A stretch of 44,127 nucleotides of DNA, from contig JAFWTP010000098.1 in the NCBI GenBank assembly GCA_017518845.1, positions 1 through 44,127 of the forward strand, in the 5' to 3' direction. Positions 41,777-44,127 of the stretch are shown here, one piece after another. The stretch's first letter is position 1. Every line of letters starts with the position of its first letter. Under the pieces are notes generated by a model. That model was not told the DNA's origin and did no database searches. It was given only the letters and a program-made list of their open reading frames with translations. The stretch comes from Neisseriaceae bacterium (GTDB lineage Bacteria; Pseudomonadota; Gammaproteobacteria; Burkholderiales; Neisseriaceae). The translations under genes were made by a program, and so were the position numbers.

Positions 41777-41808
41777 AATAGAAATATAAAAAGCGTAAAA
41801 AATTTACT

Positions 41809-43227
41809 TTAATTTATTCTAAAAGGCTTATCTGATTGAATAATTTCTGTTTGATTTAAAGTTAATTCTCTAAAAATATCAGCATATTTTTTTGCACCAG
41901 GTGAAAGGTATATTTTTTCCACATAGTCATTGATATGTAAATAATTAGAATACATTCGTATTTCTTCTATTGTGATTTTATCACTATGATTAAAATCAGT
42001 AAAAAGAAAAATACGACATTCTTGTTCTTCTTTATAGGCGACATGTTTTACCATAAAACTTAATGGCAATAAGATAAAACTAATTGTTTCTATAATTTGT
42101 TGTCTTATTTTAATATCTTCTATATTTGTAAATATGGATTGAATATTTCTTTCAATTTTCATAAATAAATCAGTTACATTTTTTTCAATTTTTCTAATGT
42201 ATCTATAATAACTTTTCCAATCATGTTGATTTCCCTGTTGATAAAATGATACTTCATCACAAGTGGCAACTCTAATATACGGTTTATTATTTAATCTTAC
42301 TTTGGGGTCAAAATAAATGCAACGATATAAAGGAAATTTTTCATATTCACCAAGATTTGATGGAAGATAATGAAAAAAATCTGGTTTTAATCCGATACTC
42401 ACGCCAGTGGCTTCTTTTCCTTTATCTTTGCCATATAAACGAAATTGATTAAGGCTGTCTTGATTGAAAGAAAAAGAAGCCAAACAAGTAGTTAGTTCTA
42501 ATACAGGTTGTAAATCAATATTATTGTTTTTAAGTGTATCTAAACTATTAAAAAAATCATATATCAATTTCCCTTCGCTTGGGTCATTAAGTTGATTGCA
42601 GCCATACATACGCAATGGACTTGATTTTTTTTCGTTGTTATCATTATTTTCTTTTTTCAATAATTTTATTGCAGTATCGGGTGTTGTGTAATGTGAAACT
42701 TTTTCATAAGTATTAAAGTTGTAGCGTATAGAATACGCATCATAAACCATAAGTTCTTCTCTTATTTTTAATACACAGAGAAGAATATCTAATAATTTTT
42801 CTCTTTGACCGTTATCTTGTGTTTCGTCTATCTTGCTTAATGCTATGCGTAAACAATTATCTTGTAAATTTGTTAATTTACTAAAAGTTAATGGTAGTTT
42901 TTCAATGTTTTTATAATTCACCCATAAATATTTTAATTCGTATAAATTACCAATATTATCAGGTAAATTATGTAAATTATCACATTCGTATAAATTTAAG
43001 CATTTTAATTGTGTTAATTGTCCAATGCTTTCAGGTAAATTTCTGATATTACTTTGAAGTAACGATAATTCTTCAAGTTGTGTTAATTCACCAACACTAT
43101 CAGGAAGTGTATCTATATTTGAATTACTTAGTATAAGATATTTTTTACTCATCAAGCGTTGAATAATTTTATTATCATCTTCGCCGAGAATTTGTTTCCA
43201 TTGAGTAATATCATTTGAAATAGACAT
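41809..43227 (-). CDS. LRR (four repeats) plus DUF2971-like C-terminal domain protein
   Basis: 472 aa with an AAGGAG RBS 8 nt upstream of the ATG at 43227. The N-terminus has four units of the form L.L....I..LP.S.G.LTQL. The C-terminus carries HYTTPDTAIKLL, LRMYGCNQLNDPSEG, ASFSFNQDSLNQFRLYG and HVAYKEEQECRIF, which match the DUF2971 signature as I remember it. Confidence 0.7.
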   Translation of the reverse strand: MSISNDITQWKQILGEDDNKIIQRLMSKKYLILSNSNIDTLPDSVGELTQLEELSLLQSNIRNLPESIGQLTQLKCLNLYECDNLHNLPDNIGNLYELKYLWVNYKNIEKLPLTFSKLTNLQDNCLRIALSKIDETQDNGQREKLLDILLCVLKIREELMVYDAYSIRYNFNTYEKVSHYTTPDTAIKLLKKENNDNNEKKSSPLRMYGCNQLNDPSEGKLIYDFFNSLDTLKNNNIDLQPVLELTTCLASFSFNQDSLNQFRLYGKDKGKEATGVSIGLKPDFFHYLPSNLGEYEKFPLYRCIYFDPKVRLNNKPYIRVATCDEVSFYQQGNQHDWKSYYRYIRKIEKNVTDLFMKIERNIQSIFTNIEDIKIRQQIIETISFILLPLSFMVKHVAYKEEQECRIFLFTDFNHSDKITIEEIRMYSNYLHINDYVEKIYLSPGAKKYADIFRELTLNQTEIIQSDKPFRIN

Positions 43228-43265
43228 TTTTATACTCCTTATGTAATTAAAAATTACATTACTAA

Positions 43266-44127
43266 TTAAATATGTATCTCGCAATTTGATGAGCGTAATA
43301 TATCCAATGCTCTCATTGTTTTTGTGGATATATTTAAATTTTCGCAACCGTCTAAATATAATTTTCGCAAATTTTGTAACTGCCCAATATTTTCAGGTAG
43401 TGTTGTAAGATTTGCACAACTCCGTAAAATCAATTCTTTTAAGTTTTGCAACTGACTAATACTTTCAGGTAGTGTTGTGAGATTTTCGCACTCGATTAAA
43501 GCTAGTGTTTGCAAGTTTTGCAACTTTCCAATGCTTTCAGGTAGTGAAATGAGATTTTCGCAACTATTTAAAATCAAGACTTGCAAGTTTTGTAATTGCC
43601 CAATGTTTTCAGGCAGTGTTGTGAGATTTTTACAACCCAATAAATCTAATTCTTGCAAGTTTTTCAACTCTACAATGCTTTCAGGTATCGTTGTGAGATT
43701 GCAAACTCTTAAATATAATCTTTTCAAGTTTCGCAACTGTCCAATACTTTCAGGTAGCATTTCAAAATTCACACAACCGCTTAAATCCAATGTTTGCAAG
43801 TTTTGTAATTCTCCAATACTTTCAGGTAGCGTTTTAAAATTGTCGCACCATTCTAAATTCAGTACTTGCAATTTTTGCAACTGCCCAATATTTTCAGGTA
43901 GCGTTTTAAGATTTTCACAATAACCTAAATATAATTTTTGCAAATTCTTCAACTGCCCAATGCTTTCAGGTAGTGTGGTAAGGCTCTTACAACCAATATT
44001 TTGTAATAATAACTCTTCATCCAATAATGGATGGCGTTTTAAATACCGTGCCCCTAATTGTTCAATATTTTTAGGTACAGTACAAAAACGATATAAATAA
44101 AGATGACATAGAGAGTTTAGTGCAGCC
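43266..44127 (-). CDS. Leucine-rich repeat protein, N-terminus beyond the window edge
   Basis: The frame is open from the window edge: AALNSLCHLYLYRFCTVPKNIEQLGARYLKRHPL precedes the TTG used by the ORF track. At least nine 24-aa units follow the pattern LPESIGQLQNLQ.L.L..CENLTT. Confidence 0.8.
   Translation of the reverse strand, partial: AALNSLCHLYLYRFCTVPKNIEQLGARYLKRHPLLDEELLLQNIGCKSLTTLPESIGQLKNLQKLYLGYCENLKTLPENIGQLQKLQVLNLEWCDNFKTLPESIGELQNLQTLDLSGCVNFEMLPESIGQLRNLKRLYLRVCNLTTIPESIVELKNLQELDLLGCKNLTTLPENIGQLQNLQVLILNSCENLISLPESIGKLQNLQTLALIECENLTTLPESISQLQNLKELILRSCANLTTLPENIGQLQNLRKLYLDGCENLNISTKTMRALDILRSSNCEIHI

Follow-up and report, generated by a model that had tools for sequence, protein, structure and literature searches.

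The window analysed here, a 44,127-nucleotide stretch of contig JAFWTP010000098.1 (assembly GCA_017518845.1) from an uncultured ruminant Neisseriaceae bacterium, ends in a segment of low GC (guanine plus cytosine) content that holds two genes, both on the minus strand, an orientation absent from an earlier reading of the same DNA made from its sequence alone. The upstream gene A, of which only the 3' part lies in the window, encodes a protein with leucine-rich repeats (LRRs). The downstream gene B, our main concern, is complete, and its 472-amino-acid (aa) product joins LRRs to a C-terminal domain of the DUF2971 family. The sequence-only reading had divided gene B into four LRRs, a helical linker and a domain of about 300 aa, and both Pfam and AlphaFold2 (AF2) modelling agree with that division. 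The parts of gene B are as follows.

41809..43227, minus strand: gene B, LRR–DUF2971 fusion, complete, 472 aa (ATG at 43227, stop codon 41809-41811; open reading frame and translation)
43147..43227, minus strand: N-terminal cap, aa 1-27, with the motif DITQWKQIL
42853..43146, minus strand: LRR module, aa 28-125, four repeats with strands at aa 30-33, 53-56, 76-79 and 100-103 in the AF2 model
42718..42852, minus strand: helical linker, aa 126-170, conserved across the family, with an invariant L159
41812..42717, minus strand: DUF2971/ADP-ribosyltransferase (ART)-like domain, aa 171-472, from the Pfam fragment score, the matches of relatives and the Foldseek ranking
42685..42693, minus strand: candidate ART motif I, H179-Y180-T181, in the first strand of the domain (aa 177-181); H179 at least 90 % conserved, Y180 invariant
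42571..42588, minus strand: invariant loop N214-D215-P216-x-E218-G219, from the family alignment
42427..42444, minus strand: candidate ART motif II, F262-R263-L264-Y265-G266-K267, all invariant; the Pfam DUF2971 profile begins here
42013..42027, minus strand: candidate ART motif III, E401-Q402-E403-C404-R405, with the ExE, at the start of the strand aa 403-410; the Pfam profile ends here

An ART-like domain behind leucine-rich repeats

The assignment of the C-terminal domain to DUF2971 depended on how the protein was presented to the profile. Searched whole, gene B scored 20.4 bits against Pfam PF11185, just under the threshold of 22, whereas the fragment aa 140-472 scored 23.4 bits against the same gathering threshold and covered the profile in full (positions 1-89). 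All 15 of the aligned family members tested matched DUF2971, and many homologues carry precomputed PF11185 matches. By its isolated-fragment score the domain is a DUF2971 member, as had been proposed from the sequence. The DUF2971 motifs quoted in that proposal were real, and most of their residues are conserved in our family alignment of 30 sequences, the basis of all statements of invariance here, in which 44 columns of the domain are invariant. E401, E403, C404 and R405 of motif III are among these, as are R302-C303, Y305, K394-H395 and a C-terminal S..PFR.

The accompanying statement that DUF2971 has no known function had been overtaken by the literature. Two independent publications put the family in the ART superfamily. 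A 2025 survey placed it in the H-Y-E clade, nearest to DarT, AbiGi and Tox-ART-HYD1, and described its motif-I His as weakly conserved and its motif-II Tyr as strict, alongside an ExE motif and helical inserts that are large. One member, Aristaios, a 316-aa protein consisting of DUF2971 only and encoded on the lactococcal plasmid pUCCL641_199, was experimentally shown to act against phage in an Abi-like (abortive-infection-type) manner and interferes with phage transcription. The pattern of the gene B domain (His, Tyr, ExE and helical inserts) fits the published description, with H179, Y265 and the ExE at predicted strand or helix positions; these residues were assigned by analogy with that description.

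A Foldseek search with the whole gene B model was dominated by LRR matches, and the domain was therefore re-modelled alone (predicted local distance difference test, pLDDT, 81.3; predicted template-modelling score, pTM, 0.86). The ten best matches of this model in the PDB were all of ART fold, namely CteC (8htf, 8htc, 8htd), seven DarT chains (entries 7omu, 7omv, 7omw, 7omy, 7omx, 7yk3) and Tpt1 (7yw4), at E-values of 0.16-1.5, probabilities of at most 0.33 and target-normalised TM-scores of at most 0.45. Based on DUF2971 membership, motif conservation, this fold ranking and the published work, with no significant alignment contributed by our own analysis, the C-terminal domain carries the hallmarks of an H-Y-[ExE] ADP-ribosyltransferase and is presumably catalytic.

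The likeness to DarT, the single-stranded-DNA thymidine ADP-ribosyltransferase toxin of the anti-phage DarTG system, has its bounds. DarT structures (7omu, 7omv, 7omw, 7omy, 7yk3) are among the best, though non-significant, structural neighbours of the domain, and an LRR–DarT fusion occurs among the LRR relatives of gene A. Gene B, however, has no match to the DarT profile (PF14487/NF048013) in Pfam or NCBIfam, its domain is larger, with long helical inserts, and no DarG-type macrodomain antitoxin adjoins it, its neighbours being gene A and dnaX. Profile-profile comparison (hhalign) of the family with that single LRR–DarT protein gave no signal, nor did comparison with the helical inserts removed. 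Against PDB sequences, a whole-protein profile was dominated by tetratricopeptide repeat (TPR) matches and a domain-only profile found no match.

Pfam LRR_14 matched the LRR module at E=2.8e-18, and the profiles matched are of the type found in plant nucleotide-binding LRR receptors, or NLRs (LRR_14, RPS2, RPS4B-like); Foldseek matches to the module were Leptospira LRR proteins, SHOC2, the NRG1 LRR and XopL (4fcg). The sequence-only reading had called the gene A repeats more familiar from eukaryotic receptors than from ordinary bacterial proteins; this LRR class is nevertheless abundant in bacteria and archaea (2246 significant matches among the candidates scored). The cap ahead of the repeats carries a motif, [DE]I[ATS][EQ]WK.IL, common to the Neisseriaceae LRR proteins P0002, P0123, P0125 and P0128. 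The possibility that genes A and B were a single split gene was rejected on the evidence of the conserved N-terminal cap that gene B possesses in common with complete homologues. With the family alignment as input, the AF2 model of the entire protein was confident (pLDDT 88.9, pTM 0.92), implying, for the modelled structure, a fixed arrangement of LRR, linker and enzyme.

Gene A and the low-GC island

The remaining features of the segment are these.

43266..44127, minus strand: gene A, LRR protein, 3' part (last 286 of 629 codons plus the stop codon), running off the window end
43338..43982, minus strand: gene A LRR array, nine 24-aa repeats (one of 23), a 72-nucleotide (nt) DNA period in 8.8 copies
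43235..43240, minus strand: ribosome-binding site AAGGAG, 7 nt before the gene B ATG, within the spacer between the genes
41762..41776, no strand assigned: last uptake sequence, a palindromic TTCAGGCAGCCTGAA pair, the dnaX-side edge of the low-GC segment

The coordinates confirm two co-directional genes separated by 38 bp (43228-43265; the gene A stop codon is 43266-43268), the second of them with its ribosome-binding site, and the sharp change in composition that the sequence-only reading had taken as a sign of recent horizontal acquisition beside dnaX was likewise borne out. GC content is 0.282 in 41777-44127 against 0.421 in the rest of the window; it falls directly past 41776 (at about 41780) from 0.44-0.48 to 0.22-0.34, and no other 2351-bp stretch of the window lies under 0.382. 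Copies of the uptake sequence AGGCWGCCTGAA number 58 in the first 41.8 kb, or 1.4 per kb, against none in the last 2351 bp, the widest gap elsewhere in the window being 1995 bp. The Poisson probability of finding no uptake sequence is 0.038 for the 2351 bp, and 0.008 for the whole 3.5-kb island as seen on a second contig, L001. The last site, at 41762..41776, is hairpin-forming and lies directly past the gene B stop codon, and beyond it dnaX is the next gene.

The exact gene B protein was present on two further metagenome contigs. L001, 99.85 % identical to the window over 12.3 kb, holds the entire island and supplied what the window lacked, the complete gene A and the aroC-side boundary. Its gene order is aroC (divergent), gene A, gene B, dnaX, and the low-GC insert, about 3.5 kb without an uptake sequence, lies between aroC and dnaX (GC 0.26-0.31, against 0.46-0.49 in those two genes). 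The A–B pair is retained in three assemblies of the same species. Homologues of gene B in other genomes likewise lie 15-18 GC points below their surroundings (13-18 points over all genomes checked), and, given this together with the low GC and the lack of uptake sequences, the island looks horizontally acquired. A metagenome scan with DnaX for an empty site reached identities of at most 72 %, with no aroC synteny in the matches, and an exact DnaX look-up gave no match; no relative with adjacent aroC and dnaX was found in these searches, and no direct repeats or att-like sites were found at the island flanks.

A promoter-like site is present only upstream of gene A, and no terminator-like site lies between A and B, which makes co-transcription of the two genes plausible. 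In the aroC–gene A interval, beyond the window, a perfect 14-nt inverted repeat (TACAGGGCATTCTT/AAGAATGCCCTGTA, L001:7237-7268) overlaps that promoter-like site and may serve as an operator.

On L001 gene A (7307-9196) encodes 629 aa, a 245-aa N-terminal region followed by four and then nine LRRs, 13 in all; the nine are those that had been read in the window as at least nine near-perfect 24-aa repeats. The LRR units of genes A and B form one DNA repeat family (D3), with 15 copies across both genes. The proposal that the N-terminus of gene A might carry an NTPase, TIR or other signalling domain was not sustained, as Pfam and NCBIfam recognised none in the full-length protein. Its N-terminal 250 aa had no homologue among about 5.8 billion proteins, a weaker negative than it sounds, since full-length gene A also appears to be absent from that collection, and none among all fetched loci and proteins (tblastn, blastp, phmmer). 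The only match of gene A in PADLOC-DB, to LeoC at E=0.053, was noise.

The nearest LRR relatives of gene A are fused to DarT (P0146), PLD (P0133), TIR (P0143) or Roc GTPase domains. P0146, from a Logan assembly, joins DarT (PF14487, 71 bits) to LRRs 60 % identical to those of gene A; it is a bona fide, LRR-gated ART, and the organism that encodes it is probably related. Two Neisseriaceae LRR proteins, P0123 and P0128, have the gene B cap motif and LRRs but end in another domain, unannotated and about 130 aa long, which suggests a C-terminal module swap. Taken together, the varied fusions of gene A's LRR relatives, the repeat family shared by A and B, and the cap motif joined to different C-termini point to a pool of LRR cassettes that are shuffled within this Neisseriaceae lineage. 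Gene A is best described as a locus-specific LRR neighbour with an orphan N-terminal domain, and not as a required or conserved partner of gene B.

Several observations around the island stand apart from these genes. A second low-GC patch in the window (36000-36800, GC 0.30-0.35) contains a 249-aa open reading frame (ORF; 36036..36785, plus strand) related to the SDH_protease family. The corresponding gene encodes 330 aa on L001 and is split into 228 and 59 aa on another contig, L002; with such differing lengths it may be decaying or variable. Another low-GC patch, beyond the window at L001:3800-5800, holds a uracil-DNA glycosylase gene and a gene for a 291-aa protein without a family match. 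In dnaX itself (41749..40436, minus strand), the end reads ...GAC CCA AAA TAA (window 40421-40450), and a 334-aa ORF (40421..39417, minus strand) for the C-terminal part of tau is open in the -1 frame across it. With that ORF running through the dnaX end, C_CCA_AAA, just upstream of the 0-frame stop, forms a slippery heptamer of the type X_XXY_YYZ; the 0 frame would then yield a short gamma-like product and a -1 shift the full-length tau, the reverse of Escherichia coli. The same split into 437 and 334 aa was called in two other assemblies. The tau C-terminal ORF (39417-40421, minus strand) also has four in-frame (F/I/V)SGSL(K/S) repeats, at least three of which coincide with mapped copies of the uptake sequence.

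Relatives of gene B and their neighbours

A pattern scan of 185,579 species genomes yielded 223 confirmed loci, of which the best 80 were examined. Carriers include Neisseriaceae, Pasteurellaceae, Moraxellaceae, Cardiobacteriaceae, Rothia and Bacteroidales. The part ahead of the conserved domain is most often not an LRR: in 49 of 71 loci it is TPR, 16 matching the TPR-S ("TPR-Sensor") family, and some members have Sel1 repeats. The TPR/Sel1–DUF2971 proteins (Rothia aeria P0056 and P0077, and others in Psychrobacter, Haemophilus and Neisseria) differ from gene B in their repeats, while their C-terminal domains share 35-40 % identity with that of gene B across about 330 aa and keep its invariant residues, S..PFR among them; linker and stand-alone genomic habit are also the same. 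The LRR-fused form, with 4 to more than 40 LRRs, was found only in metagenome-assembled genomes (MAGs) of ruminant Neisseriaceae, where arrays of 279, 565, 898 and 1119 aa occur; MAG RGIG3783 carries four paralogues, three LRR-fused and one not, and MAG RGIG9199 three. In a distant paralogue from a further Neisseriaceae MAG, RGIG5993, the DUF2971-like domain follows an AAA_5 (McrB/MoxR-type) ATPase in place of repeats (L016:116-2557). The TPR/Sel1–DUF2971 proteins are annotated at their sources as repeat proteins only, and our literature search found no paper describing them. The repeat-fused proteins are a new, apparently undescribed variant of the recently recognised DUF2971 ART-like defence proteins.

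The sequence-only reading had proposed genes A and B as a candidate two-gene sensor–effector system. The closest homologues of gene B, Neisseriaceae MAG proteins with 38-55 % BLASTP identity, each stand alone: an adjacent, separate LRR gene was present in none of five such contexts. P0002 adjoins a Gp49/HTH toxin–antitoxin pair, P0003 lies between thrC and rnhA with a ParE pair nearby, P0009 adjoins MazEF, and P0012 is located before xseB; toxin–antitoxin pairs thus lie beside three close homologues (P0002, P0003, P0009). The TPR form of Rothia aeria follows a gene of the DNA topoisomerase IV/gyrase A family. One locus, L010, was considered as a second pair of LRR gene and DUF2971 gene and rejected, as the two parts belong to one ORF of about 1,700 aa that is interrupted by an assembly gap, a run of N. 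More widely, the upstream genes of 71 loci and the downstream genes of 74 were analysed. Recurrent upstream neighbours were housekeeping genes, namely LigA at 22 loci (all Psychrobacter by genus), HrpA at four and RpoC at four, and no LRR family was among the 25 upstream families listed, a list that went down to two members. Downstream there was no recurrent family, and neither a macrodomain nor an immunity gene among the families listed. As genes A and B do not co-occur at these loci, a conserved two-gene system is not supported.

The Psychrobacter loci deserve separate mention. In L037, L041, L043, L049 and others, 22 loci in all, the TPR–DUF2971 gene is directly downstream of ligA, the NAD+-dependent DNA ligase gene, on the same strand and often after a gap of a few bases.

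A proposed repeat-gated defence protein and its rivals

From the sequence and its analogies, our preferred reading is that gene B encodes a self-contained, auto-inhibited, repeat-sensor-fused ART-type protein that would act in defence (conflict) as a single polypeptide. We give this a probability of roughly 0.45. The logic of recognition repeats coupled to an effector, which had been proposed for a fusion or for a pair, is best read as residing within gene B, the pair itself not being conserved. At rest, the repeat and linker part would hold the enzyme domain inactive, an auto-inhibition suggested by the lack of an antitoxin gene and by the confident single-body model; with such inhibition no antitoxin or immunity gene would be needed. 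A trigger, most likely a phage protein, would bind the LRR surface and release the ART-like domain, which would consume NAD+ in modifying its target, a nucleic acid or a protein, and then shut down transcription or replication of the infected cell, an abortive infection of the kind reported for Aristaios. Across the family, one C-terminal enzyme domain would be served by interchangeable repeat sensors.

Aristaios is the closest precedent. Like it, gene B is a single gene encoding a Pfam DUF2971 domain with a predicted ART fold and has no antitoxin or conserved partner gene, and abortive infection is the likely outcome for both, predicted from the analogy for gene B. Aristaios, however, lacks the LRR sensor module and helical linker of gene B, being the domain alone, and it is plasmid-borne in a Firmicute whereas gene B is chromosomal.

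CapRel(SJ46)-type fused toxin–antitoxin sensors and the NTPase-based Avs and NLR-like sensors join a recognition domain to a toxic enzyme that is released on binding of a phage protein. Gene B appears to share this logic with them, but no homology, and in contrast to the NLR/STAND-like proteins (Avs, bNACHT, Roco), no STAND, NACHT or other NTPase domain is present in gene B or in the complete gene A.

Several observations weigh against this interpretation. The defence role is extrapolated from a single, distant, experimentally tested DUF2971 member, Aristaios, and auto-inhibition by the LRR from the lack of a partner gene. No Foldseek match of the domain reached significance (best E=0.16), and profile-profile comparison with a 150-sequence DarT alignment was negative (hhalign probability 0.2 %). 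Gene B matches no model in PADLOC-DB v2. Searches by tblastn of plasmid and phage collections gave no match; for the domain against 72,556 plasmids there was none at E<=0.01, in a collection that may not include the Aristaios plasmid. The neighbourhoods are mostly of housekeeping genes and not defence islands, and the single position next to ligA that the Psychrobacter gene keeps in 22 species looks more like that of a stably inherited gene than of a mobile defence gene.

The last two points could also describe an endogenous regulatory or stress-response enzyme, an ART-like modifier brought by its repeats to a cellular partner, for example in DNA metabolism; its stable place downstream of an NAD+-dependent ligase gene and the lack of a defence-database match would suit such a role. 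We consider this quite unlikely in view of the patchy distribution (223 loci in 185,579 species genomes), the strongly deviant GC in every genome examined, the interchangeable type and number of repeats, the multiple paralogues per genome, and the action of the one tested DUF2971 protein against phage. Somewhat less unlikely, if still to be doubted, is an exported effector or toxin, in which the LRR would recognise a target protein in a eukaryotic host or competitor cell for the ART-like domain to modify. XopL, XopAC and IpaH/SspH offer the parallel, with an LRR module of the same structural class ahead of an enzymatic domain. The best NCBIfam matches of the gene B LRR are XopAE, XopL and XopAC, the Foldseek match to XopL (4fcg) agrees, the closest carriers are animal-associated (ruminant Neisseriaceae, Rothia, Haemophilus, Kingella, Cardiobacterium), and the 2025 survey predicted an effector role for about 18 % of DUF2971 proteins, Legionella lpg1268 among them. 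Yet the scores for the XopL, XopAE and XopAC equivalogs (59.6, 51.3 and 47.2 bits) are about a tenth of their cut-offs (600, 500 and 450) and cover the LRR only. Gene B has no E3-ligase or Fic domain, the N-termini of both A and B are hydrophilic, without a signal peptide or known secretion or trafficking domain, and no immunity gene is adjacent. The C-terminal domain is also known from Rothia, which is Gram-positive, and from the free-living Psychrobacter, Acinetobacter and Pedobacter, a range that makes a shared export route unlikely, and the gene is present in taxa that lack such secretion systems.

Two further alternatives are, in our judgement, improbable. One is that genes A and B do form a two-component system after all, with A sensing and B executing, or A regulating B. 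Their shared strand, the 38-bp spacer free of a terminator, the promoter-like site upstream of A only, the common DNA repeat family and the retention of the pair in three same-species assemblies speak for it; the five close-homologue contexts and the listed upstream families of 71 loci, none with an LRR gene, speak against it, as do the lack of any homologue of the 245-aa N-terminal region of gene A in the collections searched and the fact that gene B homologues are complete fusions by themselves. The other, given a similarly small chance, is that the C-terminal domain is not of ART type at all, having another fold or being a non-catalytic scaffold in which the H/Y/ExE pattern is coincidental. 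No ART gave a significant structural or profile match, and a search of the viral structure library BFVD returned only uncharacterised, non-significant matches; against this, the top ten PDB matches were all ARTs although very few entries of the library are, the invariant residues gather where strands would be expected to begin, and both publications cited above place the family among the ARTs.

Beyond the reading of gene B as a single-chain defence protein lies a bolder one, which we hold to be doubtful though worth setting down: that the repeat–DUF2971 proteins are a new class of NTPase-less immune receptor in which an ADP-ribosyltransferase is under the direct control of an LRR or TPR array. 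Such receptors would have expanded in ruminant Neisseriaceae to a modest set of paralogues with 4 to more than 40 LRRs, comparable, on the bacterial side, to diversified families of LRR receptors, and gene A would draw on the same LRR pool with a completely new N-terminal effector domain.

If gene B is indeed a sensor-fused ART-type defence protein, DUF2971 proteins would not be only stand-alone Abi enzymes. They would also supply the effector part of single-chain sensor–enzyme fusions, which make up a large and unannotated family in oral, respiratory, ruminant and environmental bacteria. This would offer a simple, testable model in which a repeat domain switches on an ADP-ribosyltransferase without an NTPase or an antitoxin, and the sensors of the family, from TPR and Sel1 repeats to arrays of 4 to more than 40 LRRs, form a natural series built on a single enzyme scaffold. 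A function would likewise be assigned to hundreds of proteins that are labelled only "tetratricopeptide repeat protein" or "hypothetical".

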